The notes below the pieces were generated by a model. It searched no databases and was not told the DNA's origin. It saw only the letters and a list, made by a program, of their open reading frames with translations. DNA of 64,000 nt from the NCBI GenBank assembly GCA_039028835.1, contig JBCCHK010000008.1, positions 77,463 to 141,462 on the forward strand, read 5' to 3'. The stretch is from Pseudomonadota bacterium. GTDB lineage: Bacteria > Pseudomonadota > Alphaproteobacteria > JBCCHK01. How positions within the stretch are numbered: position 1 is the first letter of the stretch; every line of letters begins with the position of its first letter. Positions 2-39,219 of the stretch are shown one piece after another. A program made the position numbers and the translations under genes.

Positions 2-817
2 GCCCAACGCCTGGCGCAAGAGCTGGAGGATATAATCCAGTCGCTCGGTCCAGAGCGCGTCATGGCCTTTGTCGTAGAGCCGGTCGTCGGCGCGAGTCTC
101 GGCAGCCAGCCGCCGCCACCGGGTTATTTTGCCCGCGTCCGGGAAATCTGTGATGCCCACGGGGTCTTACTCATCGCCGATGAGGTCATGTGCGGCATGG
201 GGCGGACGGGTAGCCTTTATGCTCTAGAACAGGAAGCAAGCGCGCAAGGGGCAGTCTGCGCCGATATCACCACCCTGGCTAAGGGTCTGGCGGCGGGCTA
301 TCAGCCTTTGGCTGCTGTCTTGGCGCGCGAGTCAGTCGTCCAAGCCGTGGCGGAGGGCAGTGGTATCCTGCTCAACGGCCATACTTACATGGCCCATGCG
401 ATCACGACCGCCGCTGCTCTTGTGGTGCATCGGGTGATCGAGGCGGACGATTTGCTGATGAACGTGCGCGCGCGGGGCGCACAGCTGGAAGCGGGGCTAC
501 GGGATCGATTCATGGCCCATCCGCATGTGGGCGATATTCGTGGGCGTGGGCTGTTTTTCAGCGTGGAGCTGGTGGCGGATCTTCGGTCCAAAACGCCCTT
601 CCCGTCGCGCGCCGGGGTCGCCATGGCCGTGCGCGAGGCGGCCCTTGCGCTTGGCGTGTTGACCTATCCCGCGCAAGGGTGCGTCGATGGCATCAACGGC
701 GATCATGTCTTGCTCGCGCCGTCCTATACCTCGAGCACGGCACAGATTGATCGCATTGTGGACGTGCTCAAAGCCGCGCTTGATCAGGTCTTGGCAAGCA
801 AGCGTCATGCTTCATAA
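2..817 (+). CDS. Class III (omega-type) PLP aminotransferase, 5'-truncated by window edge
   Basis: Frame is open from base 2 (AQRLAQELEDII...). Motifs: AFVVEPVVG, LIADEVMCGMGRTG, DITTLAKGL (PLP Lys), GHTY, IRGRGL. Confidence 0.92.
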   Translation, partial: AQRLAQELEDIIQSLGPERVMAFVVEPVVGASLGSQPPPPGYFARVREICDAHGVLLIADEVMCGMGRTGSLYALEQEASAQGAVCADITTLAKGLAAGYQPLAAVLARESVVQAVAEGSGILLNGHTYMAHAITTAAALVVHRVIEADDLLMNVRARGAQLEAGLRDRFMAHPHVGDIRGRGLFFSVELVADLRSKTPFPSRAGVAMAVREAALALGVLTYPAQGCVDGINGDHVLLAPSYTSSTAQIDRIVDVLKAALDQVLASKRHAS

Positions 818-822: not shown

Positions 823-1704
823 ATGCCTAATAAAACCATTCTCACCGCGGCGATCACCGGTAATCTCATGATGCCAGAGATCAGCCCTCATCTGCCGGTC
901 ACCCCCGCCCAGATCGCCCAATCCGCTTTGGATGCCGCGCAAGCGGGTGCGGCAATTGTCCATCTGCATGTGCGCGATCCCGACACGGCTAAGGGCTCTA
1001 TGCGCCTTGAACTTTATGAGGACGTGGTGGCGCGTATCCGCGTCAAAAACCGCGATGTGCTGATTAATCTCACCACCGGGGAAGGGGGGCGGTTTGTCCC
1101 TTCACGCGATAATCCTGCGCTCGCCGCTGAGGGCACGAGTCTGTGCGCCCCAGACAAGCGCGTGGCGCACATCGTCGCCTTACGGCCAGAGATTTGCACG
1201 TTGGATCTTAATACCATGTGGTCCGGGCAAGCGAGCGTAATTAACGCGCCGCAAAATATAGAAATCATGGCCGAGCACATCACCCAAGCAGGGGTCAAGC
1301 CAGAGATCGAGATTTTCGATAGCGGTGATCTGCATCTCATGGAGGACCTGCTCGCCCGGGGGGTGCTCGCCCCGCCCTTGATGGTGCAGATGGTGTTGGG
1401 GGTGCGGTTTGGCGCAGTCGCGGACACTCAAACCATGGCCTATCTCGTGTCTCGCTTGCCCCCTAACACCCAGTGGGCCGCTTTTGGGATTGGTCGCGCC
1501 GCCTTTCCCATGCTGGCGCAAGCGTTGATCTTGGGGGGGCACGTGCGAATCGGCATGGAAGATACCGCCTACATCTCTCGTGGCGAGCACTGCCAATCCA
1601 ATGCCCAGCTGGTGGAAAAGGCCGTGCGTATCGTCATCGAGCTGGGCGGCGAGATTGCCAGTCCCAGCCAGGCGCGGCAGATTCTCGGGTTGCCCGCAGC
1701 CTAA
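823..1704 (+). CDS. BKACE / DUF849 beta-keto acid cleavage enzyme (3-keto-5-aminohexanoate cleavage family)
   Basis: ILTAAITG...PHLPVTP..IA, AGAAIVHLHVRD (Zn HxH), VKPEIEIFD, GGHVRIGMED, SNAQLV, A.P.QARQILGL. Confidence 0.93.
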   Translation: MPNKTILTAAITGNLMMPEISPHLPVTPAQIAQSALDAAQAGAAIVHLHVRDPDTAKGSMRLELYEDVVARIRVKNRDVLINLTTGEGGRFVPSRDNPALAAEGTSLCAPDKRVAHIVALRPEICTLDLNTMWSGQASVINAPQNIEIMAEHITQAGVKPEIEIFDSGDLHLMEDLLARGVLAPPLMVQMVLGVRFGAVADTQTMAYLVSRLPPNTQWAAFGIGRAAFPMLAQALILGGHVRIGMEDTAYISRGEHCQSNAQLVEKAVRIVIELGGEIASPSQARQILGLPAA

Positions 1705-1798: not shown

Positions 1799-2404
1799 AT
1801 GACCAAGAAAGCCAACACCCTGCTTGCCACCAACGAAGACACGGTCGGGCCTTATTACCCGATCTATTTCGCTGATGAGATGTATGAGGATATCTCACGG
1901 ATTCATCATGGTGTGAGCGTCAAACCCGAAGGCCAAGCCATCGAGTTGACCGGGCGTTTGATCGATCATGACGGCAACCTTGCCAACGGGGTCGTGATGG
2001 AGTTTTGGCAGGCCAATGCCAAGGGCGTCTATCGCACGCCCGCGACCGTCGATGATCCTCATCTTGATCCTTGGTTTGATGGCTTTGGCCGGGTGCGCAC
2101 CGCCGATGGCCATTATCGATTCCGCACGATCATGCCTGGCGCGGCGCCCGGGCGCGCGCCAAACATCACAATCACCCTGTTTTCTGATGGCATCAGCCGC
2201 ATCGTCACGCAAGTGTTTTTTGAAGGCGAGGCGGGCCACCAGTCCGATCCGTTGCTCGTTTCACTCCCTGCACCAGAGCGGGACAAACTCATTGCCCGAA
2301 AAACAACGACAACAACGGGTGCGCGTGGTTCGAGAGTCTATCAGTTCGATATCGTCATGGCGGGGAAGAACGAAACACCTTTTTTCGACGATTTTGAAAG
2401 CTAA
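1799..2404 (+). CDS. pcaG: Intradiol dioxygenase, protocatechuate 3,4-dioxygenase alpha-subunit-like (divergent)
   Basis: TVGPY, EFWQANAKGVY, FGRV.T, FRTIMPG, DPLL, YQFDIVMAGKNETPFFD. Lacks Fe ligands, as expected for an alpha subunit. Confidence 0.8.
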   Translation: MTKKANTLLATNEDTVGPYYPIYFADEMYEDISRIHHGVSVKPEGQAIELTGRLIDHDGNLANGVVMEFWQANAKGVYRTPATVDDPHLDPWFDGFGRVRTADGHYRFRTIMPGAAPGRAPNITITLFSDGISRIVTQVFFEGEAGHQSDPLLVSLPAPERDKLIARKTTTTTGARGSRVYQFDIVMAGKNETPFFDDFES

Positions 2405-2442
2405 TAAATACAAAAAATAGAAAAACATGAGGAACAAACCCC

Positions 2443-3114
2443 ATGGCTACGCAAGGCAGGACTCTCCCCATTGGTCCCACCGATAACACCTCCGAGCAGC
2501 GCACCCCGCGTGCGCGATTGCATCTGATCCCCACCGCGGCGCGGGCAAGTTTTGTGCCCTTTGTGCCTGTGCGGGGAAGCCTGCGCCAAGGGGAGACGGA
2601 CCTCACGCGCGTCACGCCTGATCGACCACGCGCCCAAGGCACGGCGATTGAGGTGAGCGGTACCGTGCGCACCGCCTCAGGCACGCCGGTACGTGGCGGG
2701 CTTTTGGAAATATGGAACGCCAACACCTTTGGCCGCTATACCCATATCGAGGATTGCGCGCCAGATGTGCCGATCGATCCGAACTTTTTAGGCATGGGAC
2801 GGGTAGAAACCGATGAGAAGGGGCAGTATTGTTTTTGGACGATCAGCCCGGGGGCGTATCTTGCACGGCCTGATATTGGTCGTTGGCGTCCCAAGCATAT
2901 TCATCTCTCTCTTGCGGGTGGCGCCTCGCGATTGATTACCCAGATGTATTTCCCCAACGAGCCGAACAACGTGACTGATCCGATGGCAATTTTGATGGGC
3001 GAGGATTTTCATCGTAACATCGGCGTTGTTTATCAGACGCCTGAACGGGATGTCGATCACGGCTATCGTTTTGATATCATCGTCGGTGGACGTAACGCGA
3101 CGTTCTTTGAATAG
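2443..3114 (+). CDS. pcaH: Intradiol dioxygenase, protocatechuate 3,4-dioxygenase beta-subunit-like (divergent)
   Basis: EIWNANTFGRYTH, DPNFLGMGR, PGAY, WRPKHIH, LITQMYF, YRFDI. Tyr/Tyr/His/His Fe ligands are present. Confidence 0.85.
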   Translation: MATQGRTLPIGPTDNTSEQRTPRARLHLIPTAARASFVPFVPVRGSLRQGETDLTRVTPDRPRAQGTAIEVSGTVRTASGTPVRGGLLEIWNANTFGRYTHIEDCAPDVPIDPNFLGMGRVETDEKGQYCFWTISPGAYLARPDIGRWRPKHIHLSLAGGASRLITQMYFPNEPNNVTDPMAILMGEDFHRNIGVVYQTPERDVDHGYRFDIIVGGRNATFFE

Positions 3115-3139: not shown

Positions 3140-4636
3140 TTACAGCTCTTCTTGCTTGCGATTTTGCCACAAAAACCAAACGGCACTCACAGCCGCCAGA
3201 ACCAACAAAATAAGCGCAACAGGATACTCGATGATCCGCATCCAATCACCGTTCATCAGGGCGAGAGATTGGGAGATAGAAATCTCAAACCGGGGGCCGA
3301 GAAAAAAGGCAATCAGAAAAATCACTACCGAATAACCAAAGTTAGTCATTACATATCCAAGCACCGCAAACAAAAGCATGATCGCGATGCCAAATACCCC
3401 GCCGGTTGCCATAGAAACCCCGACAAAGCATAGCAGTAGCGCAACAGAAAAGATGATCGACTCCGGGGCGGTCACCACCTTAACCCAAAACCGCAGGCCA
3501 ATCTGGCCGAGCACAAGGTTAAGAACATTGGCCATAATCATTGCGCCAAATAAACCGTAAATCAGCCGGCCTTGGCTTTCAAACAATAAGGGGCCCGGCT
3601 GGACGCCGTGAATCATCAGCGCGCTGATAATCAGAGCCGCGCTCACGCTGCCAGGAATCCCTAAGGTAAGCAGTGGGATAAGATTCGCCCCCACCACCGA
3701 TGAGTTTGCTGATTCTGCCGCGGCGATCCCATGCAGATCACCCTTACCAAAGGTCTCGGGCTTTTTCGCGCCGGCCTTGGTTGAGGCGTAGGATATAAAA
3801 GCGGCAGCGGTAGAGCCGATGCCAGGCAGCGCGCCGAGCAGCGTGCCGATCATCGCGCCGCGTAGCATGGTAAAGCGGCATCCCCAGTATTCGCGCCAAC
3901 TCACCCGTTGGTCTTCGGGGCGGCCTGTTTCTTCGATCTCAACAGCGCGGCGCATCGTGCCCTTAATTCGGCTCAAGCGGCGAAGAATCTCAGAAATCGC
4001 GAGCATGCCAATCGCCACCGAGGGTAACGGCAAGCCATCAAACAACTCAAAATGACCAAAGATCAAGCGCGGGGTGTAGTTTTCAGGGTCGCTGCCAATG
4101 CTGGCGAACAAGAGCCCCAACCCTGCGGCAACGATTCCCTTAACCAAAGAGTTACCGACCAACGCCGCCAGCACCGAAAAGGCAAAGATCATCAGCGCAA
4201 AAATCTCCACCGGTCCCATGCGCAGGGCCAAGATCGCCAGCGGGGCGGACACCGTAATCAAGATGATATCGCTGAAGGTATCGCCTGTCACGGACGAGAA
4301 AAGCGCCATTTTGGTTGCCTTGAGCGGCTTGCCTTGGCGGGCGAGAGGATGCCCGTCAAGGGCCGTGGCCGCCGCATCGGGCGTGCCAGGAGTGTTAATC
4401 AAAATCGCCGGAACTGCCCCGCCAACCAGCCCGCCCTTGTTCACACCGACCAAAAAGGCAATCGCCGGCAGGGTATCGAGCCCAAAGGTAAAGGGAATGG
4501 CAATGGCCATCGCCATGACCGGGCCGATCCCGGGCACGGCACCAACGAACTGTCCCAAGGCGACGCCAAACAGGACGAAGAACAAATTGACCAAGGTAAA
4601 GGCGTCAGCAAAGCCAGCGAGCACGGTGGCGAGCAT
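3140..4636 (-). CDS. tctA: Tripartite tricarboxylate transporter large permease
   Basis: GAVPGIG, GGAVPAILINTPGTP.AAATALDGHPLARQG, GIAAAESAN, IPLLTLGIPGS, HGVQPGP. Confidence 0.93.
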   Translation of the reverse strand: MLATVLAGFADAFTLVNLFFVLFGVALGQFVGAVPGIGPVMAMAIAIPFTFGLDTLPAIAFLVGVNKGGLVGGAVPAILINTPGTPDAAATALDGHPLARQGKPLKATKMALFSSVTGDTFSDIILITVSAPLAILALRMGPVEIFALMIFAFSVLAALVGNSLVKGIVAAGLGLLFASIGSDPENYTPRLIFGHFELFDGLPLPSVAIGMLAISEILRRLSRIKGTMRRAVEIEETGRPEDQRVSWREYWGCRFTMLRGAMIGTLLGALPGIGSTAAAFISYASTKAGAKKPETFGKGDLHGIAAAESANSSVVGANLIPLLTLGIPGSVSAALIISALMIHGVQPGPLLFESQGRLIYGLFGAMIMANVLNLVLGQIGLRFWVKVVTAPESIIFSVALLLCFVGVSMATGGVFGIAIMLLFAVLGYVMTNFGYSVVIFLIAFFLGPRFEISISQSLALMNGDWMRIIEYPVALILLVLAAVSAVWFLWQNRKQEEL

Positions 4637-4651: not shown

Positions 4652-5092
4652 TTAGGGCAGGGGGCGCTGAAGGACGTAGACGACCACGATCCATATCACG
4701 ACCGGCGCAACGACGCAGCCAAGACCAAGCCAAGGCCAGCGTCGCTCGCCGATTAAAACCATAAGCACGAATGCGATGACCGGGGCGGTATAGACAAACC
4801 CAACCCACGACGTGGCCCACAAACCTGCCGCAAGCACACCGGCATACAATCCTGCACGGGCAAACTCTTGCCAGTGAGGCGGGACGTGGTCGGTGGGTCG
4901 CAGGGTGATAAGAATACCGCAGACCATTAAAAGGGCGGCGATGCTGTTCGGGATGGTCGTGGGCGAGAGCCAACCACCATCCCGAACCTCAGTATAGGTA
5001 GGGATGATCCAGAAGAACAAAGCCAGCGAGCACAGGACAAGAAACAGTCCTGAACAACGGTCAGCCAAGGGACTCATGGATCGTCCCGACAA
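4652..5092 (-). CDS. tctB: Tripartite tricarboxylate transporter small permease
   Basis: About 146 aa, 4 TM segments, ends LQRPLP, lies between tctC and tctA. Start may be 5077. Confidence 0.85.
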   Translation of the reverse strand: MSGRSMSPLADRCSGLFLVLCSLALFFWIIPTYTEVRDGGWLSPTTIPNSIAALLMVCGILITLRPTDHVPPHWQEFARAGLYAGVLAAGLWATSWVGFVYTAPVIAFVLMVLIGERRWPWLGLGCVVAPVVIWIVVVYVLQRPLP

Positions 5093-6043
5093 TTAGTTTT
5101 TCCCGAAGAGTACTTTGACGTTTTCGATACCGCTGACCATCATGTCTTTGGTGCCTTCGGGGCCCAGATTAAGTGTGGAGCTCACGGCAGCTTTTCTCAC
5201 CACGTCAGCCACCTGGGGACTTTGAATGGCGTTTGCAAACGCCTCACGCAAGGCGCCGATAGCATCCGCATCGGTGCCGGCGGTCGTTGCAAAGAACCAA
5301 TAGGGGTCCATGTAAACGTTATAGCCGTCTTCTGCGACAGTCCGAATATCAGGGGCGTAATCATGGCGCGTGTTGTTTGCGCTGGCGATCATCTTAAGCT
5401 CACCAGCCTCCAACAGCGGCAGGTGGGTGCCAGCAGAAAAGCCGACCATAATCTGACCACCGAGAAGCAGCTTCTGGGTTTCGGCCTCCCCTTCGGTAGA
5501 CACGAAACGGAATCCAGCGTTCGCTTTTTTATCGACAACCTCCATCAGAAACTTTTGCGGTCCCGCACCAAAACCGATGGCAATCCCATCATTGGCTTTG
5601 GCGTAAGCGATCATCTCTTGCAAATTATCAAAAGGCGCGTCTGCCCGGGCGACCAGGGCAAGCTGTGCCCGTGCGACCGTGCCGATGTAATCAAAACTAT
5701 CCAGATTAAACGCGAGCTCATCACCCCGTTGCACCAGGTTAATCATGATCGGCATATTCACGCCCAAGCCGATCACCGCACCGTCCGCAGGGCGATTGGC
5801 AATCCCCGTGAACATGGCCACGCCGCCGCCGCCGGTTTTATTCTCGGCGATGACGTTCCAGCCCGTTTGCTCTTTCATCACTTGGGCGATGACGCGCCCC
5901 ATCACGTCAGTGGAGCCACCGGCGCCAAAGCCAATCTGGACCCGCAAGGTGCCCGAGGGTGACCAGTCGGCGGTCATACCCACACTGGCGAGAGTTACGG
6001 TAACCACCGTCAGGACGGTGGTGAACATTTTTTTAATCAGCAT
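5093..6043 (-). CDS. tctC: TctC/Bug extracytoplasmic solute receptor
   Basis: Signal peptide, GFGAGGSTDVMGR, ENKTGGGG, PADG, LLGGQI. ATG at 6043 follows AAGGA. Confidence 0.92.
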   Translation of the reverse strand: MLIKKMFTTVLTVVTVTLASVGMTADWSPSGTLRVQIGFGAGGSTDVMGRVIAQVMKEQTGWNVIAENKTGGGGVAMFTGIANRPADGAVIGLGVNMPIMINLVQRGDELAFNLDSFDYIGTVARAQLALVARADAPFDNLQEMIAYAKANDGIAIGFGAGPQKFLMEVVDKKANAGFRFVSTEGEAETQKLLLGGQIMVGFSAGTHLPLLEAGELKMIASANNTRHDYAPDIRTVAEDGYNVYMDPYWFFATTAGTDADAIGALREAFANAIQSPQVADVVRKAAVSSTLNLGPEGTKDMMVSGIENVKVLFGKN

Positions 6044-6289
6044 TGAGATATCCTTCTTCGTCAAGGTAAGCAGTGAGCACAACAGATATTCAAGCAAACG
6101 CCCAAATACGCGATAACGGCGCACGTTGGTCTATTATCCGTAGGGGGCATCTTTGTTTATGCGTCTGTGTTTCCTCCCAAAAAGGGGTATCTATACAGGA
6201 ATTGCCATAGGGGTGCAAATAAAGGACTCTAGGTGATCCGGGTAAACCGCCGGATACACTATCGGTAATGCGATAAAGGAGCGTGAGGA

Positions 6290-7933
6290 TTGCCTAAGAA
6301 AATCCTTTTTATCATGTGCGATCAGCTGCGCTTTGATTACCTGGGGTGCAGTGGTCATCCGACGATTCGAACGCCGCATATCAATGGGTTGGCGGCACGG
6401 GGAGTGCGTTTTGATCGCGCCTACGTCCAGTCGACGATTTGTGGACCTAGCCGGATGAGTTTTTACACGGGTCGTTACGTGCGCAGCCACGGCTCCTTGT
6501 GGAATGGCCACCCTTTGCGGGTGGGGGAGATGACCTTGGGCGATCATCTTCGTTCGTTGGGCGTGCGTACGGTCTTATGCGGCAAAACCCATATGCAGGC
6601 GGATCTGGAAGGCATGGCGCGGCTCGGCATCGATCCGCGCGAGGGTATCGGTGCGTTGGTTGCTGAGTGTGGGTTTGAGGTATGGGATCGGCACGACGGC
6701 ATTGTCCCTGAAGGCGCGAAAAAACAACCGACGCACTATAACAAGCACCTAAGCGCCCGTGGCTATGAAGGCTTAAATCCCTGGCACACCTGGGCCAATG
6801 CCGGGCGTGATGAGCAAGGGGATATCCTCTCGGGCTGGCTCTTGAAACACACCCGCGCGCCCGCCGCCGTTGCCGAAGAAGATTCTGAGACCCCCTATAC
6901 CGCCCGGCGCGCCATCGAGTTTATGGAGCAAGCTAAGGATGAAAGCTGGTGCTTGCACGTTAGTTTCATCAAGCCCCACTGGCCCTATATTGTGCCCGCG
7001 CCCTATCATGATATGTACGGCGTGCAAGATATTCTGCCTGCCCAGCGTGACCCGGCGGAACGGGAAGACCCTCATCCGCTTTTGGCAGGGTATTATGACC
7101 ATCGCTATAGCAAGGCTTTTAGCAAGGATGAGGTTCGGGCGCAGGTCATCCCGGCCTATATGGGACTCATCAGCCAGATCGACAATGAGGTTGGGCGGAT
7201 CGTGGACTACCTTGCGGCGACAAACCAGCTGGATGAGACCATGATCGTCTTTACCTCGGATCACGGGGATTATTTGGGCGACCATTGGCTCGGGGAAAAG
7301 GAGCTGTTTCATGATACGTGTGCGCGCATTCCCCTTATCATCGTGGACCCCTCCAAGGATGCTGACCAAACCCGGGGGCAGGTCTATCAGGGTCTCACCC
7401 AAGCGATCGATCTTGTGCCAACTTTGATCTCGTTTTTCGGCGGGACGCCGCCTGGGCATATCTTAGAAGGTCAATCGCTGTCTCCGGTCTTGCATGGCAC
7501 GGGGGCGCCGGACTATCCGTTTGTCATCAGTGAGTATGATTATTCAGCGCGGCCTTATTTGCGGCACCTCTCCAGGCGCATTGCTGACTGCAAGCTGGTC
7601 ATGGTGTTCGATGGCCGCTGGAAAATGATCTGGGTCGAGGGGCATCGGCCCATGCTCTATGACTTGCAAACCGACCCGGATGAGTTTCATGATCTGGGCG
7701 GTCAGACAGCCCAGCATGCGCAGATCGAGCGTCTAAGCCAGATGATGTTCATGTGGGCGCGCCAACAGCACAACCGAGTCACCGTCTCGGATGCACAGAT
7801 CGAGGATTCCTTTTGTCGTGATGACGCCGCGGCGGGGGTGTATTTAGGTTTTTGGGACGAGGCGGAGCGGGACGCTTGGAAAAAGGCGCAAGATCAAAAA
7901 ACAAAACCCAAAAGCCCAGAGGAAAAAACCTAA
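6290..7933 (+). CDS. Cys-type (formylglycine) sulfatase, arylsulfatase/phosphonate-monoester-hydrolase clade
   Basis: ILFIMCDQLR, ICGPSRMSFYTGRY (CxPxR), GKTH, KPHWP, FTSDHGDYLGDH..GEKE, LYDL..DP.E. No signal peptide. Confidence 0.9.
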   Translation: MPKKILFIMCDQLRFDYLGCSGHPTIRTPHINGLAARGVRFDRAYVQSTICGPSRMSFYTGRYVRSHGSLWNGHPLRVGEMTLGDHLRSLGVRTVLCGKTHMQADLEGMARLGIDPREGIGALVAECGFEVWDRHDGIVPEGAKKQPTHYNKHLSARGYEGLNPWHTWANAGRDEQGDILSGWLLKHTRAPAAVAEEDSETPYTARRAIEFMEQAKDESWCLHVSFIKPHWPYIVPAPYHDMYGVQDILPAQRDPAEREDPHPLLAGYYDHRYSKAFSKDEVRAQVIPAYMGLISQIDNEVGRIVDYLAATNQLDETMIVFTSDHGDYLGDHWLGEKELFHDTCARIPLIIVDPSKDADQTRGQVYQGLTQAIDLVPTLISFFGGTPPGHILEGQSLSPVLHGTGAPDYPFVISEYDYSARPYLRHLSRRIADCKLVMVFDGRWKMIWVEGHRPMLYDLQTDPDEFHDLGGQTAQHAQIERLSQMMFMWARQQHNRVTVSDAQIEDSFCRDDAAAGVYLGFWDEAERDAWKKAQDQKTKPKSPEEKT

Positions 7934-11155: not shown

Positions 11156-11815
11156 TTGGCACTCAAGAAGCAGCAGTTTTCCGAAGGCGAAATTCCGATC
11201 TTTGACGAAGCTTGTATCTACAAGCGTGGGGAATATTGGTAATTTCGGATGTGGCTAGCGAAGGAGGGCAAGTATGCCCGCAAAAGTCTTCGTACTTGCA
11301 GCCAGAGCACAGCCATTGAGCACGGAAAAGCTGCCTACCTTGAGATCTATGCCAATCTGCAGCAAGGCAAGACCTATTTTTCTATCACGACAAAAGAAGA
11401 TGTCGAGAGGTATCTGAAGTTTCGCCAACGTGATGTTGAACTTGGACACATAGTTAAAGGACGATACACAACAATAGCAACGCACTTACAGCACTTTCTA
11501 AGCTACATTGGCAAAGACATCAAGCTAAAAGAACTAGAACGCACAGACTGCGAAAACTACTTCTATCATCGCCACAAGGCCACCAACGGCAACGTCAAAC
11601 AAGTCACTGTTCAAAACGAACAAAGCACAATCAATGCGCTAATGAAATGGCTACATAAGAATGGCGAGACACACATTGATGGCTTTGACTTTAAGAAGCT
11701 GCCACGTTTAGACAAAGGCAATGATGCTATTCGTCGTGCAACACTGACTAACGACGAATATGAAGCACTGTACCGTGCAATGCGTACATATACTGCCAAA
11801 CACAACAAGCCGTAA
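11156..11815 (+). pseudogene. Tyrosine integrase pseudogene (N-terminal arm/core-binding part only)
   Basis: ORFs 11060-11242 and 11249-11815 are in one frame, split by TAA at 11240 (EYW*FRMW). Contains RKSLRT and a SAM-like core-binding region. It ends before any catalytic R-H-R-H-Y motifs. Confidence 0.72.
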
Positions 11816-12341
11816 CGTCTCTCTGTGTTGTCTGAATATTTCGATGGCCAGCTATTTCAGCAAGCACAAAAACACTCACACCCTTTTGGCTCAGCGTTGT
11901 GAGCCATGTTCTGCGGCCACTGTGTGATGATGTAGCACCGTGTAACCCAGCACGCTCGTACAAACGCTGTAAATGATGTGTAGCGGTATTTGCGCTAAAG
12001 CATGCCCGTTTTTGCGTTGAAAACAAAAAACCATGTAGCGGGTGTTCTCACAAGCTTTTGACGTATTCTTGTAAGTGCTTGTGCATTTGCCGTGGCAGAA
12101 ATACTTTACGAGCATGCTTGCCCTTAGTACGGCTTGCATCAAGTATAATTTCATCGAGTATGCTGCCGCTGTGATCGAGCACATCATCAAAGCGCGAACT
12201 TGCAATCTCGCCAACTCGAAGTCCGCACAAGTGCGAGAACAGCATCATAGTGACGTCACGCTGCGGATATCTGCTGCACCCAGCAGTCACGTCAATTAGC
12301 TGCTTAAGTTCGCTTTTTCGTAAGGTTCTTGCTTGAGCCAT
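11810..12341 (-). pseudogene. Small catalytic-domain-only tyrosine recombinase/resolvase pseudogene
   Basis: GLRVGE, TKG, HSGRR, AGHRNIQTTQR. In-frame TGA at 12048-12050. The catalytic Tyr position reads Asp (TTQRDV). Confidence 0.85.
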
Positions 12342-12345
12342 ATGC

Positions 12346-12395
12346 ACCTCAGAAAAAATGTAATGTTTTCGTACATATAGTGTATTTTCTGAGGT
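12346..12395. repeat. 11-bp perfect inverted repeat upstream of the small recombinase
   Basis: ACCTCAGAAAA (12346-12356) and TTTTCTGAGGT (12385-12395), 28-bp spacer. Confidence 0.7.
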
Positions 12396-12480
12396 ATTTT
12401 TTGGGCAACCGAAAACGGCTCTTCAAAATCCTATTTAAATTTAATGACTTAGCGGAAAATGTAAAAAAATTGTAGTTTTC

Positions 12481-13458
12481 TTACATTTTTTCAGCATGTT
12501 CATTATGCTGAGCAACAACGACAATTTCACCACTCACCAGTCTAGTAATAGGTCCATTAAAAAAATCCGAATATAGAGCGGACTTATCTACGGATTTAGG
12601 TGCAGACGCAGATTTGATCGCGAACCCATTTCGAGTGAGGGTATCGACCATCATTTTGAGAGAAAAGTTTATTGTGTGGGGCTCAAAGAGAATGCCATCC
12701 CTACTTCCATTCATTAGTCGTGTAATTTGATTGGCACCATCAGGAACTGCAATAACTAATTGACCTTGACTATTCATTATATTTTTAATCGACATCAGCA
12801 CGTTATCAACGCTTTGAGGATCGTAATGCTCTAAAACATGCGACATAAAAATCGTATCGAATTTAAGGTTAATGGAATTATCAGGAATTTCGTTCAAGAC
12901 TGTTACACCAAGCTCCCTTGTTAATATGACTTTTGAATAAGGATCCGGCTCGACGGCATACTTTGAATGTGATTGACTAAGCTTTAGTAACACCCCCACA
13001 CCTGAACCTATATCTAAAATCTTTTTTTCAGGCTTATCATCAGAAATTTCTAGTAAGAATAAAGAGCGCTTAGAAAATCTTTTGTATGCATCAGTTTTAA
13101 CAAAATAGTCGAAAAATTTGCCATCCGTTTGGACGACAGTTCTGAATGGCTGGACATCAAACTGGTAATCTTTTTGGTAATAGTCATCGAGGTTAATTTT
13201 TAGCTTTGGTATGAAACTGCCAAAACAAGTCCCACAAGTAACTAAGATGTGGCCAATAAATTTTTCAGTAGCAACTGGATACGAAGATATGAAAATCTTG
13301 TCTTTTGGGCAGTGGCATTGAAAATGATCGAATAAATGGTTTACTTCAATAAAGTTTGGAACGTGTTTTTTTAACTTAATAAGCGATCCTGCGTATTTAT
13401 CATAACGTAATTTAAACCGATCAAGCTGTTCAAGGATTTGTTCCCAATCTCTGTTCAT
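12481..13458 (-). CDS. Class I SAM-dependent methyltransferase with N-terminal Cys cluster (polysaccharide-associated)
   Basis: CHCP..CGTC, ILDIGSGVG, AVEP, FDTIFMSHVLEH, LVIAVP. Confidence 0.8.
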   Translation of the reverse strand: MNRDWEQILEQLDRFKLRYDKYAGSLIKLKKHVPNFIEVNHLFDHFQCHCPKDKIFISSYPVATEKFIGHILVTCGTCFGSFIPKLKINLDDYYQKDYQFDVQPFRTVVQTDGKFFDYFVKTDAYKRFSKRSLFLLEISDDKPEKKILDIGSGVGVLLKLSQSHSKYAVEPDPYSKVILTRELGVTVLNEIPDNSINLKFDTIFMSHVLEHYDPQSVDNVLMSIKNIMNSQGQLVIAVPDGANQITRLMNGSRDGILFEPHTINFSLKMMVDTLTRNGFAIKSASAPKSVDKSALYSDFFNGPITRLVSGEIVVVAQHNEHAEKM

Positions 13459-13472
13459 CTATGGATCCTCCT

Positions 13473-14555
13473 TCAGAAGGTGTTTTCATTGAATTGAAGA
13501 AAATCACTGTTAAATGGCGGTAACAATTGGTCTTTGGATAGCTTAATCACTTTTGTGAATCCATCTTGAAAACAATCATGACGATTAATGTTGCTGTTGT
13601 AAGTAATCAAATAACGGATATTTCTGGTCTGAAAATTTTTTTGGTTTGATAGGTCTAATTGAACATTTGGCAAACGACGCCGCATTGATCGATAGATCGA
13701 CAACCATCCAAAGCTATAGTCCAACGGGTGTGGCCTAACCAAAGTAAGAATTTCAGGATTTGTAGCCTTTATTTCAAGTGCTTTATCAACAAGTAGATTG
13801 CAATAGTCAGTAAAATCAATATTCATTGCTATTGCTGAATCGTACTTTATCTGCAAAGCTATCAAAGCTATCGGATCTGAATTAATACTTTCCATAAAGG
13901 GTCTGTTTATTCGCCTCATAAGGGAAAAGATTAAGATGTTTAAAATTCTCGTGAAAAATCGTTTTAAATAATATTTAAATCCCCGCGCCGATCGAATGTG
14001 CAAAGGCAGTGCAAGCATTCGATAGATTTTAGGATAACCAATTTTTATGGAATCTGCGGAATGAAACTTCTGATCCAAAAATATGCTTCTTAAATGATCG
14101 CCGTGATTAAGGTGTAAATCACCAAAAATTGTAACACCTCCATTTTTGTTGGAGCTTTCGAATACTACGCAATTTGAAGCATAGTCATCATTTAGTTTTA
14201 GGCAACTGCCTATGAAGGTGTGCTGATTAAAAATCCAGATTTTTTGATAATCGAATTCCTTATTAATCTCTAGCATCGAGAATAGACTTGACTGTAATCT
14301 TTTGATAGTGCTCTTAGTATACGTTCCTCGCTTTTCCTCAATAGACTCTGCATAAATTTTTGATGATCGATCCTCACGAATTTGTGAGGGGCATGTGATG
14401 TGGTTTTTTGGAATGCCGTGAAGGCGTTCTAAAATAATTTTTTCCAACTGTGAGAAAATAATGACTTTATAGGCATTAATTAATTTGTGCCGTTCAGCTA
14501 ATGAAATCAATAGCCTTGCTATCAGAAGATTCTGAGCGACTATGAGGACTTTCAT
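13473..14555 (-). CDS. KpsS/KpsC-like capsular polysaccharide biosynthesis protein (putative)
   Basis: IALQIKYDS (QxxxD) and VRPHPLD (HP) motifs plus ITYNS, as in the KpsS/KpsC-like fold. Confidence 0.55.
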   Translation of the reverse strand: MKVLIVAQNLLIARLLISLAERHKLINAYKVIIFSQLEKIILERLHGIPKNHITCPSQIREDRSSKIYAESIEEKRGTYTKSTIKRLQSSLFSMLEINKEFDYQKIWIFNQHTFIGSCLKLNDDYASNCVVFESSNKNGGVTIFGDLHLNHGDHLRSIFLDQKFHSADSIKIGYPKIYRMLALPLHIRSARGFKYYLKRFFTRILNILIFSLMRRINRPFMESINSDPIALIALQIKYDSAIAMNIDFTDYCNLLVDKALEIKATNPEILTLVRPHPLDYSFGWLSIYRSMRRRLPNVQLDLSNQKNFQTRNIRYLITYNSNINRHDCFQDGFTKVIKLSKDQLLPPFNSDFLQFNENTF

Positions 14556-15277
14556 AGCTTAATACCCGATAGTGACTCATGTTTCATTTGGTTAACGACT
14601 GTTAAGTATTCTCTTAGAGAGGAAACTGATGTATTCACCATGAAGCGCAATAATAAAAAACCTAGGATGAAATTGTTTAAATTGGTCACATGCCACCAGT
14701 CATAAAAATACGCCAAAGTGGTTATTGTCATAGAAAGTACAGCGTATGAAGAAATCATTATTTCGCGCACATCACTGAATTTTTCAAATTTATGTTCGTG
14801 TTTATGGATTTTATATTTGCTCAACAGAGCATATAAAGTAGTCAAAAAGACCATTAAAAATGTCATCACAGTACTAAATGAAAAATAGCCAATAACAAAT
14901 ATAGATGTGAGAACAGCAAGTGTAGAGACAGTAAGCTCACTAGATGCCTTGGCAAAATTAAGGACCGTTACTTTGGCTTCAGTCCTACTCACAGATAGAT
15001 ATTTTAGTGCAATCTTGTAGCGTAAAGATTGATTTAAAAACTGATAAGAGGCTTCGAGTAGTATGGCTACAACTAGAACTGCCAATAATACTATTGATGA
15101 TTTTGTCAGTGTGCCACTATCGTTTAGCTCAAAGAAAACTTTAATAGGAATTAAAAATTTTAGTAATTGAGTTATTCTAAATGCAGATAGCAATAGCAAT
15201 AATATCAGTGAATAAAAACCGCTTATCGATAAGAAGTTAAATATAGAAATATATATTTGGTAGATTTTAGAAAACAT
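14552..15277 (-). CDS. Hypothetical integral membrane protein (polysaccharide locus)
   Basis: 241-aa ORF with about 6 hydrophobic segments. ATGA-coupled to the downstream gene. Confidence 0.65.
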   Translation of the reverse strand: MFSKIYQIYISIFNFLSISGFYSLILLLLLSAFRITQLLKFLIPIKVFFELNDSGTLTKSSIVLLAVLVVAILLEASYQFLNQSLRYKIALKYLSVSRTEAKVTVLNFAKASSELTVSTLAVLTSIFVIGYFSFSTVMTFLMVFLTTLYALLSKYKIHKHEHKFEKFSDVREIMISSYAVLSMTITTLAYFYDWWHVTNLNNFILGFLLLRFMVNTSVSSLREYLTVVNQMKHESLSGIKL

Positions 15278-15282
15278 ATGCT

Positions 15283-16716
15283 TTAGAGTTTAAGTTTCGC
15301 GAAAAGCTTTGCTCTGAATGAACGTGGATCGATTATTAGCAAGCGAATTGCATTTCTAATTTTTCGAATTGCATTTCTAATTTTTGTACTTCGTTTATGG
15401 CGGTTATTAACTGGCGAATTTGTTGCATTTGAACTCACGACGATCTTTCTCGTTTTTTTTATTTCGTACAATTTGTTGTTGAATTTTTCTAAATCCGATT
15501 CGCTGCAACCAATTGATGGTAATAAGTTTGCACTTAAATGCTCTAAAAACTTCTCATATGATTTCTCCGTTTTGTCAAAGAAACCATGTTCCGTAATATC
15601 ATGGAGTAATATAGTTTTTTCGTAAGGCTCCATCTCACAGAAGAGTTCTCTAAAAAAGAAGGCGTCGTTATAATTTGGGCTTAATCCCATGAGCGTTAAA
15701 TTCAGCGCATACTGTGATACAATTCCATACCAATTATTCACACGTGATAATTGTTCATCGAGCATTCCTTCTACAAGATAAATTCTACCTAGGCGTATCT
15801 CGTCAAAAAATTTGTTTTCTAAGTAATCTTTAGTTGGGCGCGCTCCATGCTTGATGTATTCAAAAGGATGTAACTTAAGAAGGATGATATCGTTTTCTTG
15901 AAGCGCAAGCTCTACGATACGATCTAATTCATCAGATAGAACAAAATCATCCGCTATATTAGTAAGTGAATAATCATCAAACACCTGTAAGAAGACACAG
16001 CCCAGTCGTTCATCCTTTATTAAGGCAAGTATTTCATCAACATAATCTGTGTTAGGTTGAGCCTTCACATTTATATTGGATAGCAAAAGGTTAATTGGTT
16101 TTAATGGTCCAGTTTCTTTTTTTGCTCTGTCGTAAATTCTTTTAATTGTCCATGGATTGTTTTGGATTTGAGTGTACTGAGGCTCAATATATAGGTGTTT
16201 GCCGGTAAAAAAATACTCGAGCACGAATGTATTTAGATTAAATAGTTCACAAATCTTCATGCACGCTCGTTGGTAAATTTTTGATCCACCGAAAACAAAT
16301 ACCAATAGTGGCCTCTTAATAAAAAGTTTTTCACGATAATATTCAATAAAAGCCCGCGCTTCATTGAGGCTTTCCAATAGCTTTTTCAGGGCTGCCTTAT
16401 CTAAGGTGTCAAATTTTTTGTTTAATATGTCTGCCCAATTAAAGGACAAGTTTTCGCTAAGGGAGCGTGCATTTATGTATCTTCGATAATCTGCTTCGAC
16501 TATTTCGAATAGATCAACATTGTAGATGAATCGATTTGCGATTACGGTTTTTGCAAAATCTCCTCCAGGATCATTTAGATAAAAATTTAAATCTTTTGTT
16601 TTGGGTGGTTCGTCAAAAATTGCCTGTAGACCGAACTCTCGCATTACCCGATGGATCATCGGAAAGTTTCGTTGTTTAAAATTTTCATTGTCTGGAAAAA
16701 ATACAACGTTACTCAT
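15283..16716 (-). CDS. KpsS/KpsC-like capsular polysaccharide biosynthesis protein (putative)
   Basis: VFLQVFDDYS (QxxxD), LLKLHPFE (HP), FVLEYFF. 477-aa intact ORF, ATGA-coupled. Confidence 0.6.
   Translation of the reverse strand: MSNVVFFPDNENFKQRNFPMIHRVMREFGLQAIFDEPPKTKDLNFYLNDPGGDFAKTVIANRFIYNVDLFEIVEADYRRYINARSLSENLSFNWADILNKKFDTLDKAALKKLLESLNEARAFIEYYREKLFIKRPLLVFVFGGSKIYQRACMKICELFNLNTFVLEYFFTGKHLYIEPQYTQIQNNPWTIKRIYDRAKKETGPLKPINLLLSNINVKAQPNTDYVDEILALIKDERLGCVFLQVFDDYSLTNIADDFVLSDELDRIVELALQENDIILLKLHPFEYIKHGARPTKDYLENKFFDEIRLGRIYLVEGMLDEQLSRVNNWYGIVSQYALNLTLMGLSPNYNDAFFFRELFCEMEPYEKTILLHDITEHGFFDKTEKSYEKFLEHLSANLLPSIGCSESDLEKFNNKLYEIKKTRKIVVSSNATNSPVNNRHKRSTKIRNAIRKIRNAIRLLIIDPRSFRAKLFAKLKL
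15344..15385. repeat. 21-bp in-frame tandem duplication (KIRNAIR x2)
   Basis: CGAATTGCATTTCTAATTTTT occurs twice in tandem. Confidence 0.85.
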
Positions 16717-17663
16717 TTTAAAATACGCTCACAAAATTTATCTATTGCGTTTGAAACAGCAGCTTGTGAGAGTACGTTTTTAACTGCATTTTGAGTTTGT
16801 GCGTTGAGTTCTTCTCTAAATTCTTTACTTGAACGCCAGTTTGTTAATAGTGTTTGAAGTTCTTCATAGTTAGAGAAGAAACCAAGGTAGTTTTCCTCAA
16901 ATAAATCATGCGCCATTGCTATTCTTCTCGTAATGACTGGTGTTTCTGTCGATATGGCCTCGGGGAGGCTTGCTGGACCACCCTCATACCAAGAAAGAAT
17001 CAAGAGGAGATCTGCATGATTATATAATTCAAGAGATTCTAGATAAGACTTAGGCTGATTATGAATCGCCGTGAAGCCGTTGTTTCTTGCGTGGATGGCA
17101 TCAATAAGTCTGTCTTTTCCACATAACCGAAACTCGTAAGAATTAATATCCAAGTCTTTTACCAACATGCGAATGTTGCTTTCGCCTTTGACGCCACGCA
17201 TGTATCGTCTTGAGTTAATAAATAAGACAGTTTTTTTGGTCTCATTGAAATTTTGCTGGCGCGACTTTCTCAATTTTATACCCTTAAATATTTCGATAGC
17301 TTCAGTGGTGCACGCATATCCGTGAGGAATTACTTCGATCTGGGATTTCAACCCTTCTTCAAGTAATATTTTTCTTTGCAGCGTATTTAGGCAAATAATT
17401 CCACTGGTTTTTCTTATAGGGAGTAGATACTGCTTTAATGAGAACGCTGGATCGATATCCATTAAGTCATGATGGATAAATGCGAGAGAGTTTCTAGGTA
17501 TTTTTTTGCTTTTGTTTATCCTGTGATGGATACAGACATCAGCATCATCGATTGGATCAATCGAAGCGACGTGCTCATATGAACTGTATTTTGAATAAGA
17601 TTCTATAAGATCATCGAAGATTCGGCTTTTTTGCTCAGTCGCTAACACATGATTAATCAGCAT
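16713..17663 (-). CDS. GT4-type glycosyltransferase
   Basis: VIPHG, R..KG, ADLLLILSWYEGGPASLPEAI (EX7E), PVIT. GGAG upstream. Confidence 0.82.
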   Translation of the reverse strand: MLINHVLATEQKSRIFDDLIESYSKYSSYEHVASIDPIDDADVCIHHRINKSKKIPRNSLAFIHHDLMDIDPAFSLKQYLLPIRKTSGIICLNTLQRKILLEEGLKSQIEVIPHGYACTTEAIEIFKGIKLRKSRQQNFNETKKTVLFINSRRYMRGVKGESNIRMLVKDLDINSYEFRLCGKDRLIDAIHARNNGFTAIHNQPKSYLESLELYNHADLLLILSWYEGGPASLPEAISTETPVITRRIAMAHDLFEENYLGFFSNYEELQTLLTNWRSSKEFREELNAQTQNAVKNVLSQAAVSNAIDKFCERILK

Positions 17664-17934
17664 ACTCCACTCCCTAAAAGTGGCGAGAGAGATTTAATTT
17701 TTTTAATGTATTGAATATTGACCCAACAGCATTCATTACCACCGCCTTTGTCTCCGACAAGCAATGGTATGCTGCGCTTCGTAAACGAACGGCGTTAGGG
17801 ATGTGCGCAACTACGCCATCTCGCAGAACCATTGACATGGTCAGAGCCCTTTGAGAATTAAGTTAACTAGGGTGTAGGTTGTGGTCATGCCACCGAAGAC
17901 AATTGACGCAATAAATAACTTCGAACTCCACGCG

Positions 17935-18000
17935 TAACGTCTTGATTTTAAACGATTATTTGCGGGGAGGGGGTAATAGTAGTTACATGCATTAGTTACA
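17935..18000. promoter_or_regulatory. Right-end att-arm-like region: IHF site plus TAGTTACA pair
   Basis: TAACGTCTTGATT at 17935; TAGTTACA at 17980 and 17993. Confidence 0.5.
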
Positions 18001-18351: not shown

Positions 18352-18793
18352 GCCGTCCACTCCGGGCCTTCCAAGCGCCTCACCTCAACAAGCCTCTTAC
18401 GAGTGCCCCAACCCCGCAATATCTTGAGAAAACACGCGTTTTGTGTTAACCTTATGAGCTGATTCGCGGAAGGGGGGTGCGCATCAGCGCACTCGGATCA
18501 TGAACTAGGATCATCACAAGATCATCATGGGATTGTTCGATGCGTTGTCCGAGTGTTGTTTGCAAGGCACATACAGCGCGTCATAAAACAGGGATTTGTC
18601 TTTCATCACGTTAAAGGCTGCATGCCCTAAAAAGCCTGTTGTGGGTTTTTTTCAAGGGTCTGTCCGCCGTATCTCTCGATGAATAGGATTGTTCGTCATG
18701 ACCACATCCGCACAAGATATATCCGTACGGATGCTGCTTAGGGCGCGTGGGCCGATGCTCTTTGGCAGGGCGGCAGACTACCGCATGAGCTGT

Positions 18794-19930
18794 ATGAGCC
18801 GCGGGATTGTGTTGGCTTTTGCGCTCGCCTTGATCCTTCTCGCCCTCCCTGCGAGGGCCACCTTTTATGAAGGGCTCAACGCCTACAACCGGCAGGATTA
18901 CCGGGAAGCTCTGCGAGTGTGGGAACCGTTGGCCGAGCAGGGCAACCCCTATGCTCAATACAACATCGGCCTCATTTACTACGAAGGTCTTGGGGTCGAG
19001 AAAAATGACCAAGAGGCCGCAACGTGGTGGAGCCAAGCTGCCGAACAGGGCAATATCTCTGCCCAATACAACCTTGGCGTACTTTACTATGCTGGCGACG
19101 GCGTCGTTCGCGACTACGTCCGGGCGGCGCAGTGGTTTGTTCAGGCCGCCACCAATGGCCGGGCGGATGCTCAGTTTGCTTTAGGGATGATGTATTTTCA
19201 CGGTCAGGGCGTCCGCCTGGATCACGATCAGGCCGCGCACTGGTGGAGCCAAGCCGCCGAGCAAGACCACCCGCAAGCCCAACTCAGCATCGGCCTTGGC
19301 TACTACAACGGTGATATTATCGAGCAAGACTTCTCCCGCGCCCTGCGTTGGTTTACCCGTGCCGCCGAACAAGGTGAGGTCGATGCTCAGTATAGCCTTG
19401 CATCGATGTACTTTAATGGTCAGGGCACAGACCCTGACCCCATGCAAGCAGCGCGCTGGTACAAAGCCGCCGCCGAGCAAGGTGACGCGCAAGCCCAGTA
19501 TCGCCTGGGACTGCTTTATTATATGGGCGCAGAGGGGATCGATATCGACTATGACCAGGCCTACGCTTGGCAATTAGAGTCAGCCGAGCAAGGCTATCCC
19601 GAGGCGCAGTTTAATATCGGTGTCATGTACTATAACGGCGAAGGGGTCGCAAAAAATCACCGCACCGCGATGACCTGGTATGAGCGAGCCGCCGAGCAAG
19701 GTCACGCCCCGGCCATGAGCAACCTTGGCGTGATGTATGCCTTGGGTGAGGGGGCGGCTGAGGATCTGCAGCGCGCTTATATGTGGGGCCAGCTTGCCGC
19801 TCGTGGCGGTAATCAAAAGGGGAGAGACCTGCGTGATTATCTGCTCCAGCAAATGCCGCCCTCGCAAATCGAGGGGGCAGAAAACCTTGCCCGTGAGTGC
19901 CTACAGAAAAACTATCAGAACTGCTCTTAA
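18794..19930 (+). CDS. Secreted Sel1-like repeat protein
   Basis: Signal peptide (LALPARA), 8 Sel1 repeats of the form A(A)EQG..AQ..LG..Y..G.GV..D...A..W, C-terminal ARECLQKNYQNC. Confidence 0.92.
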   Translation: MSRGIVLAFALALILLALPARATFYEGLNAYNRQDYREALRVWEPLAEQGNPYAQYNIGLIYYEGLGVEKNDQEAATWWSQAAEQGNISAQYNLGVLYYAGDGVVRDYVRAAQWFVQAATNGRADAQFALGMMYFHGQGVRLDHDQAAHWWSQAAEQDHPQAQLSIGLGYYNGDIIEQDFSRALRWFTRAAEQGEVDAQYSLASMYFNGQGTDPDPMQAARWYKAAAEQGDAQAQYRLGLLYYMGAEGIDIDYDQAYAWQLESAEQGYPEAQFNIGVMYYNGEGVAKNHRTAMTWYERAAEQGHAPAMSNLGVMYALGEGAAEDLQRAYMWGQLAARGGNQKGRDLRDYLLQQMPPSQIEGAENLARECLQKNYQNCS

Positions 19931-38339: not shown

Positions 38340-39032
38340 TTATTCGGTATTGGCCGGCGGATCGGAGGCTGGGCTGGCGCGGCGATTGCGCTGGCGTGGC
38401 TTTTGGTAAGCCTCTAATTGGTGTGCATCGCAATAGGTCGCTTCGGGCGATACCGTCGCGCCACAAAAATAGAAATCATCATGCCGAGGGTCACCGTAGG
38501 GCCAGCGACAGGTCACATCGGTTAAATCTTCTAATCTTATTTTGGTCGCTTCTTTTTTTTCTGGTTTGCTCTTACTTAAGCGTAATCGGTGCAATTTACC
38601 GATTACCGAATTGCGCGTCGTGTTACCCAAGGCTGTGGCAATATCCCGCGCTGACCACCCGCGCCCCCACAATTCTGCCAGCTTGCGCACCTGATCGTCG
38701 GTCCAGGGTGAGTTTTTGGATTTTTTCTCGCTTTCTTGGCTTGTGGGCTTTTCTTGGGTTGGTCTGGAGGCATGCTTTTTGACCGCTGCAAGCTTTTGCG
38801 TGGCGGTTTTCGTAACCCTATCCACGGCGGCTTTTGCGATGGTTTTCGCTGTTGTTTTGGCGGCTGCCTTTGTTGTGGCTTGTGACGTCGATTTTGGTGC
38901 CACCTTTGCCCCCCCTTTGGCGGAAGATGTCGTTGCCGTTTTCGTTGCGGGTGACTTTTTCACCGGCGTTTTGGCGACGGTTTTGGGTTTTGGTGAGGCT
39001 TTTTTAGTCGTGTGAGTCGCTTTTTCAGCCAT
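38340..39032 (-). CDS. gcrA: Cell-cycle regulator GcrA with long Lys/Ala/Thr-rich N-terminal extension
   Basis: WTDDQV..L..LW..G.SA..IA..LG.TTRNSVIGK.HRL, and C-terminal CRWP.GDP....F.FCG......YC..H...AYQ. Confidence 0.92.
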   Translation of the reverse strand: MAEKATHTTKKASPKPKTVAKTPVKKSPATKTATTSSAKGGAKVAPKSTSQATTKAAAKTTAKTIAKAAVDRVTKTATQKLAAVKKHASRPTQEKPTSQESEKKSKNSPWTDDQVRKLAELWGRGWSARDIATALGNTTRNSVIGKLHRLRLSKSKPEKKEATKIRLEDLTDVTCRWPYGDPRHDDFYFCGATVSPEATYCDAHQLEAYQKPRQRNRRASPASDPPANTE

Positions 39033-39145
39033 AGATCTAAACCAACGTGAGTACAGGAACAGGTGCCCATCATGCCACAACTGCACTGGTTTGTGTAAAG
39101 GTTTGTGTATGGATTGGGGTACGGTTTTGCTGCTAAGAAAAAAAG

Positions 39146-39163: not shown

Positions 39164-39219
39164 GGTAAAATATTTTTATAATACTCTTTTTAGACTATTT
39201 CGTCTTTCTCAGTAGGACT

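Follow-up and report, generated by a model that had tools for sequence, protein, structure and literature searches.

The 64,000 bp stretch of DNA analysed here (positions 77,463–141,462 of the forward strand of contig JBCCHK010000008.1, alphaproteobacterial assembly GCA_039028835.1; hereafter the window) carries two adjacent plus-strand genes for the subunits of an enzyme related to protocatechuate 3,4-dioxygenase (PCD), in which the residues expected around the substrate carboxylate are replaced, two of them by aspartate. The alpha gene (1799–2404, 201 amino acids, PcaG-like) and the gene of the catalytic beta subunit (2443–3114, 223 amino acids, PcaH-like) are intact open reading frames (ORFs) with a PF00775 domain. 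A gap of 38 bp lies between the two, and a GAGGA motif precedes the beta ATG by 9 nt. The enzyme appears catalytically intact and, judging from its sequence, probably opens a catechol other than protocatechuate. That the two subunits represent a distinct subfamily of the PCD family is well supported; the assignment of a substrate is less so. We propose, with about even confidence, that this is an Fe(III) intradiol ring-cleaving enzyme for an amine-bearing catechol, the product of which would be handled by the genes of the surrounding island.

Both subunits scored above the cut-off of 27.3 bits for the superfamily (Pfam PF00775, Dioxygenase_C), with 71.6 bits for alpha and 95.3 bits for beta. 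On the NCBIfam equivalog of PcaG (TIGR02423), the alpha subunit passed marginally, with 131.1 bits for a cut-off of 126.25. The beta subunit reached 165.4 bits on the PcaH equivalog (TIGR02422), under the cut-off of 296.4; canonical PcaH proteins from other genomes scored 324–380 bits. The nearest solved structures in a HMMER search against the PDB were the PCD alpha and beta chains of Acinetobacter ADP1 (1EO2) and Pseudomonas putida (2PCD), with E-values of 1e-27 to 2e-29 for beta and 7e-24 for alpha. This is the sole such alpha/beta pair in the genome of the window (2.16 Mb, 92.9% complete). In the HMMER alignment, where PGAYLARPDIGRWRPKHIH of beta was placed on PGPYPWRNGPNDWRPAHIH of 2pcd_M, the beta residues Tyr99, Tyr139, His152 and His154 corresponded to Tyr408, Tyr447, His460 and His462, which we take to be the Fe(III) ligands of 2PCD. 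The GRY and ITQ motifs are conserved, and Arg457 and Gln477 are kept (as Arg149 and Gln167). This is the catalytic set that an earlier note, made from the window's sequence without database searches, had recognised by eye.

The residues at the carboxylate end of the site were different. In the P. putida enzyme, Tyr324 of beta and Arg133 of alpha presumably grip the substrate carboxylate, with Trp449 and Ile491 lining the pocket. The query segment PTDNTS aligned on PDYKTS of 2pcd_M (chain residues 22–27), and because chain Tyr24 (PDB Tyr324) falls there, beta Asp14 occupies the Tyr324 position; Lys325 is replaced by Asn15 and an Ile by Glu18. Similarly, alpha Asp130 stands at the Arg133 position, since ITLFSDGIS aligned on LIIFARGIN of 1eo2_A. 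The Pro448-Trp449 pair is replaced by Leu140-Ala141, and so none of the three canonical features of this end (beta Tyr324, alpha Arg133, Pro448-Trp449) is found in the window's enzyme. The codons were read directly in the sequence: GAT at 2186–2188 for alpha Asp130, GAT at 2482–2484 for beta Asp14, and TAT CTT GCA at 2857–2865 for Tyr139-Leu-Ala. Each of these replacements had been listed in the earlier note, and the alignments and codons bear them out. The PDB also contains Acinetobacter mutants in which alpha 133 (His) and beta 457 (Ser) are precisely the positions changed relative to the wild type, so both positions have been studied. The segments that differ from PcaGH are remodelled in a net acidic direction, and this remodelling is conserved and clade-specific.

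The conservation was evaluated in a set of 128 beta sequences, made of the window, eight genome loci and 119 homologues at 64–76% identity (from the best 120 of 432 hits, the other 312 being left out). Asp14 and Lys151 were present in all 128, and Asn15, an acidic residue at position 18, Leu140, Ala141 and Asp144 in 127 each. Tyr99, Tyr139, Arg149, His152, His154 and Gln167 were each found in 128/128. Eleven of eleven distant members of the subfamily, called Asp-type below, also had the equivalent of beta Asp14. On the alpha side, the aspartate was found in 9/9 rows (the window and the eight genome loci), in five of five metagenome loci, on both named plasmids (see below) and in 4/4 natural alpha-beta fusions, at an identity of only about 40%. 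The Arg-to-Asp and Tyr-to-Asp pair that the earlier note had seen in a single sequence is thereby found to be shared by homologues. As controls we used 68 canonical PcaH loci from a metagenome scan, which returned mostly canonical PcaH because one search pattern is common to both types. The canonical alpha subunits had Arg in 9/9 aligned cases and in 55/55 readable loci, the beta subunits had Tyr in 20/20 readable cases, and Pro-Trp was present in all 68 loci. Only nine of the 223 beta positions (14, 109, 140, 141, 143, 144, 146, 147 and 181) had one residue in at least 95% of the close clade and another in at least 80% of the canonical sequences, so that the differences cluster at Tyr324, in the Tyr447–Arg457 loop and at Ile491. 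Across these alignments, the Asp/Asp pair appears as a covarying hallmark of the whole subfamily and not as a single-sequence oddity.

In a tree of 69 rows rooted on the alpha subunits, the Asp-type proteins grouped in a single clade of 22 rows with an SH-aLRT support of 98, separate from the clade of canonical Tyr/Pro-Trp sequences. The Asp-type label was set by the residue itself, and the branch support is independent of it. The gene order was alpha–beta in the window and in the five Asp-type metagenome loci, and beta–alpha in 58 of 58 canonical loci. The same polarity was seen in single-chain fusions, alpha-beta for the Asp type (P0121, P0123, P0124 and P0129; 388–418 amino acids) and beta-alpha for the canonical type (P0134 and P0135); the alpha-beta chains could be handy for expression or modelling. 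The features by which the subfamily can be defined (an xDxxS arm in beta, a Tyr-Leu/Ile-Ala-Arg-x-Asp-Ile loop, alpha located before beta or fused to it, and a single clade) were all observed.

Few genomes carry the subfamily: across 401 genomes sampled evenly from the class, two matched at E≤1e-40, and one of these is the window's own. The pair is plasmid-borne in Rhizobium leguminosarum GLR17 and in Sulfitobacter sp. SK012, where the NCBI pipeline labelled both subunits "hypothetical protein"; some databases name homologues protocatechuate 3,4-dioxygenase. No RNA data were found among the sequencing runs; the one match there was a marine metagenome, which may be the source of the sequence. 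The search of the window's genome found none of pcaB, pcaC and pcaD above the cut-off and neither pobA nor a LigB-type enzyme, which at 92.9% completeness are to be taken as not found rather than absent. No pcaB, pcaC or pcaD gene was found in the conserved cluster either, and an association with the beta-ketoadipate pathway was not observed. Three of five other carrier genomes hold elsewhere a separate canonical PcaH (324–351 bits), which argues for a separate function of the Asp-type pair. An ordinary protocatechuate enzyme is very unlikely, and the pair was not filed as a protocatechuate 3,4-dioxygenase because its score on the PcaH equivalog, its residues at the substrate end and its pathway context all disagree with this name.

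The gene neighbourhood was compared among 17 close-clade loci, 14 of which have at least 1.8 kb of sequence 5′ of alpha and 12 at least 3 kb of 3′ flank. The pair forms the end of an operon in the order class-III aminotransferase, BKACE, alpha, beta. The 3′ part of the class-III (omega-type) aminotransferase gene occupies positions 2–817 (plus strand; PF00202, E-value 1.8e-51); it starts upstream of the window, and the full gene is likely 14940–16280 of locus L003. The best PDB matches of the full-length protein were class-III/omega-transaminases (top match 3i4j, 301 bits), and an aminotransferase lies 5′ of alpha in 12/14 loci. The BKACE (DUF849) gene at 823–1704 (plus strand; PF05853, 312.6 bits) remained under every NCBIfam equivalog cut-off. 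Its best PDB match was 9zsc (BsfD), with 324 bits and no gap over residues 3–289; the classical Kce 2y7d scored 163 bits. The window's BKACE shares with BsfD the loop of about 20 residues after strand 3 and its Arg, and has Phe at the position of the canonical BKACE catalytic Tyr. According to a preprint (bioRxiv 10.64898/2026.01.15.699783), BsfD (9ZSC) performs a non-canonical acetyl transfer on a phosphonate, giving a 2,4-diketone phosphonate without beta-keto acid cleavage. Judging from this likeness, the window's protein may not be a canonical BKACE, and the BKACE step is therefore uncertain. The gene is present in 7/14 loci. None of the BKACE contexts described in the accessible text of the NetSyn BKACE preprint includes a PCD-like dioxygenase.

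A divergent operon of six to seven genes lies upstream of the window (L003:8182–14936, corresponding to about 70180–76935 of G000:C8) and is kept in 10/14 loci. It encodes a family III CoA-transferase, an SMP-30/gluconolactonase-like protein, a DHDPS-family protein, a 97-amino-acid 2Fe-2S protein, a Pyr_redox_2+BFD oxidoreductase, a DAO-type flavoprotein and an SDR. The three redox subunits are built like HcnABC, D-hydroxyproline dehydrogenase or opine oxidase and constitute a flavoprotein amine/imino-acid dehydrogenase. Approximately 12 catabolic-type genes and uptake transporters travel with the pair in Rhodobacterales, Devosia, Rhizobium and the window's own lineage, which is the pattern of a catabolic island. 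An IclR regulator adjoins alpha in L006, L160 and L161. None of the neighbour genes reached an NCBIfam equivalog cut-off, and the PDB names of the nearest relatives gave no substrate clue for the transaminase, the SMP-30-like protein, the DHDPS-like protein or TctC. In the Sulfitobacter metagenome-assembled genome of locus L004, the cluster contains a DAO gene split into two ORFs, a shortened Pyr_redox gene, no aminotransferase or BKACE gene and an alpha subunit with an aberrant N-terminus; this degraded look could be due to decay or to an assembly error.

On the other side of the pair, the window contains on the minus strand the three genes of a tripartite tricarboxylate transporter (TTT): the large permease TctA (3140–4636; PF01970, 434 bits), the small permease TctB (4652–5092; PF07331) and the periplasmic binding protein TctC (5093–6124, start codon uncertain; PF03401). 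The best PDB matches of TctC were terephthalate-binding TTT proteins, at about 91 bits. TTT genes also adjoin the cluster in L005 and L161. They are followed in the window by a plus-strand gene (6290–7933; PF00884) for a cytoplasmic SpAS1-type arylsulfatase with a CGPSR formylglycine motif, which matched the model "promiscuous" arylsulfatases SpAS1 and SpAS2 in the PDB (4upi, 639 bits, and 4upl, 626 bits, respectively). A sulfatase adjoins the pair in 6/12 loci, accompanied by a formylglycine-generating enzyme (FGE) in L012 and L161, and a SulP sulfate permease is present in L005 and L161. The Rhizobium copy of the pair is located near an amino-acid ABC transporter, without a sulfatase. SpAS1 of Silicibacter pomeroyi (4UPI) is well characterised and inactive on choline-O-sulfate, and the portions available of the two sources (PMC5870055, bioRxiv 479162) name no physiological substrate for SpAS1 or SpAS2. 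A choline-sulfatase was rejected for the window's gene, given this inactivity and a score below the cut-off. The recurrent position of the arylsulfatase beside a catechol dioxygenase may be a clue to the natural role of SpAS1 and SpAS2.

We propose the following model for the reaction. The catechol would be bound by both hydroxyls on Fe(III) and the ring cut between them, as in PcaGH. The substituent recognised at the remodelled end would be cationic or a strong hydrogen-bond donor instead of a carboxylate. The likeliest is a side chain with an amino group or of the amino-acid type, such as those of DOPA, dopamine, noradrenaline or dihydroxybenzylamine. The transaminase and the three-subunit flavoprotein dehydrogenase are co-conserved and act on amines, which fits an amine-bearing ring-cleavage product. 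The amine-bearing muconate would then be passed to the omega-transaminase, the amine/imino-acid dehydrogenase, the DHDPS-like and SMP-30-like proteins, the BKACE and the CoA-transferase. More speculatively, an amino-muconate could be cyclised by an aza-Michael addition, and the resulting imino acid reopened by the dehydrogenase together with the DHDPS-like enzyme; the BKACE and the CoA-transferase would lead its carbon into CoA esters. For marine carriers, the substrate could enter through the TTT system as an aryl sulfate ester and be freed by the SpAS1-type arylsulfatase; this uptake and desulfation is the weakest step, because it is present in only about half of the loci.

The earlier note had predicted an intact enzyme tuned for a dopamine- or catecholamine-like substrate with a cationic side chain and not for protocatechuate. 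The intact site and the departure from protocatechuate stand, with the low TIGR02422 score, the distinct clade and the pca partners that were not found. The cationic substrate is compatible with the amine-handling neighbours and hangs in the balance; an amine-bearing catechol is plausible, and dopamine is just one candidate. Because Arg20 and Arg142 are kept beside the new aspartates, a zwitterionic DOPA-like side chain is no less attractive than a plain catecholamine. The arylsulfatase, the FGE, the SulP permease and the Rhizobium amino-acid ABC transporter suggest an aryl-sulfate ester and/or a DOPA-like catechol at least as much as free catecholamines. The dioxygenase might be the ring-opening step of an undescribed catechol-amine/amino-acid pathway of marine and rhizosphere Alphaproteobacteria, from O-sulfate uptake and SpAS1 desulfation, through an amino-muconate and an imino acid, a HcnABC/LhpBEF-like dehydrogenase and a DHDPS-like opening, to CoA esters via the transaminase, the BsfD-like BKACE and the CoA-transferase; in this complete form the scheme is unlikely.

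Several observations weigh against an amine-bearing substrate. A full-text literature search found no paper giving the presumed roles of Tyr324, alpha Arg133, Trp449 and Ile491. Arg20 (canonical Arg330) and Arg142 (Arg450) are retained and a Lys is present at position 151, so the site is not uniformly acidic. A sister subclade (L013, L014 and L079) keeps the beta Asp but has Ser in alpha, and in two Acidobacteria its pair is found immediately downstream of genes for an HlyD-type membrane fusion protein and for an AcrB-type RND pump (pump and alpha/beta regions L013:4905–10633 and L014:5083–10642). The alpha subunit clears the PcaG equivalog cut-off, by a small margin. As to the neighbours, L004 and L008 are close-clade loci with long flanks and have no aminotransferase, the BKACE is absent from seven of the 14 loci and the sulfatase from six of the 12. 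Carboxylates are the usual ligands of TTT binding proteins, and the closest characterised relative of the BKACE performs its unusual chemistry on an anionic phosphonate. In L079, most of the called ORFs matched no Pfam family; GC-rich DNA probably gave rise to spurious calls there.

The best-surviving alternative, although somewhat unlikely, is a neutral, polyhydroxylated or N-heteroaromatic vicinal diol (hydroxyquinol, a pyrogallol-type compound, dihydroxypyridine, dihydroxyindole or dihydroxybenzamide), for which the aspartates would serve as hydrogen-bond acceptors to OH or NH groups. The identical catalytic set is compatible with such a substrate, and the changes Trp449 to Ala and Pro448 to Leu could widen the pocket, the Tyr447–Arg457 loop being the most altered segment. 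The Ser of the sister subclade would suit hydrogen bonding better than charge, and Arg20, Arg142 and Lys151 are still basic. Such a diol does not account well, however, for the independent and conserved gains of acidic residues at beta 14, 18 and 144 and at alpha 130 (127–128/128 or all loci), nor for the loss of the basic Lys325 and alpha Arg133; moreover, the nearest neighbours are amine-handling enzymes, and the cluster showed no genes of a hydroxyquinol or pyridine pathway.

It is improbable that the enzyme serves to detoxify a catechol natural product (an antibiotic, a siderophore fragment or an algal defence compound), with neighbours belonging to unrelated pathways. The RND pump setting of the Acidobacteria sister subclade does suggest detoxification rather than catabolism, and a rare, patchy and partly plasmid-borne family would agree with it, but in the window's clade the catabolic-type genes and uptake transporters travel with the pair. 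The weakest explanation, that of a divergent protocatechuate 3,4-dioxygenase whose product enters a beta-ketoadipate pathway variant of the BKACE type, would agree with the nearest structures, the TIGR02423 score, the database names, the IclR regulators and the BKACE genes inside Methylobacterium pca clusters, but is very improbable in view of the beta score of 165 bits for a cut-off of 296, the Asp residues in place of the Tyr and Arg of every canonical enzyme examined, the pcaB, pcaC, pcaD and pobA genes not found in the genome, the separate canonical PcaH of three carriers, and the distinct clade and gene order.

Elsewhere in the window, a low-GC island was visible from about 11200 to 18000, with a GC content of 0.36–0.46 compared to about 0.56. 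It contains genes for a methyltransferase and a group-1 glycosyltransferase and several ORFs without Pfam match, and is flanked by a Pfam-less ORF (11249–11815) before and a Sel1-repeat protein (18689–19930) after. These are probably horizontally acquired surface-polysaccharide genes. A 2-oxoglutarate dehydrogenase E1 gene is located at 34156–37020, and a TssM/IcmF-type gene at 44045–47629, with its neighbours from about 39000 to 56000, indicates a type VI secretion cluster.

The genes pcaH and pcaG are widely used as markers of the turnover of lignin- and phenolic-derived carbon in marine and soil bacteria. A SAR116 preprint notes pcaGH genes in one subclade, with a PcaH that branches as sister to Rhodobacterales. 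If the substrate of the subfamily were an amine-bearing or sulfated catechol, its protocatechuate annotations would overstate protocatechuate use, and a sink would be identified for metabolites of the catecholamine or DOPA type from algae, invertebrates and legumes. The enzyme would also represent a natural case of reversed charge in a non-heme iron enzyme that ranks among the best studied, helping to understand and engineer substrate recognition. A sulfated-catechol pathway, if real, would give a natural role to the much-studied "promiscuous" SpAS1 arylsulfatase family.

Among known systems, PcaGH (P. putida 2PCD/3PCA, Acinetobacter ADP1 1EO2) is the closest, with two homologous PF00775 subunits and the same Tyr, Tyr, His, His site with Arg457 and Gln477 in beta. 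The Asp type differs from it by the replacement of Tyr324 by Asp, Lys325 by Asn, Pro448-Trp449 by Leu-Ala, Ile491 by Met and alpha Arg133 by Asp. The 451–455 loop NHxNA becomes PDIGR, Ala458 becomes Lys, the N-terminal arm of beta is about 10 residues shorter and one alpha loop about 7 residues shorter. The gene order is alpha–beta instead of beta–alpha, and the pcaBCD partners were not found. The nearest precedent for a retuning of that end of the pocket is the type II PCD found in Hydrogenophaga intermedia S1 and in Agrobacterium radiobacter S2, a natural PcaGH variant in which the acceptance of the para-substituent is reportedly changed and which is said to oxidise 4-sulfocatechol as well. 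Compared by description only, it accepts another anion, a sulfonate, whereas the Asp type shifts to acidic residues. The single-subunit catechol, chlorocatechol and hydroxyquinol 1,2-dioxygenases share the catalytic domain and the iron ligands (E-values 1e-12 to 1e-6) but are far more distant than PcaH, being homodimers that have a lipid-binding helical linker domain and whose pockets are mostly hydrophobic.

The Methylobacterium pca clusters resemble the window in having a BKACE directly beside PCD genes. According to PMC8963497, the DUF849/BKACE gene lies there between pcaG and pcaB and is proposed to replace PcaIJ/PcaF. These clusters contain, however, canonical pcaHG together with pcaB, pcaC and pcaD, and the window's BKACE is BsfD-like and not of the G4 beta-ketoadipate type. 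A limited literature search found no intradiol enzyme specialised for amine catechols or acting on dopamine. If the substrate is indeed an amine-bearing catechol, the functional analogues would be the L-DOPA extradiol dioxygenases, the plant DODA and the bacterial L-DOPA 2,3-dioxygenase (abstracts of PMC12311729 and PMC11926856), because they open the ring of a catechol bearing an amino-acid side chain. These have unrelated folds, use Fe(II) and cleave in the extradiol mode to semialdehydes, whereas the Asp-type enzyme would give a muconate.

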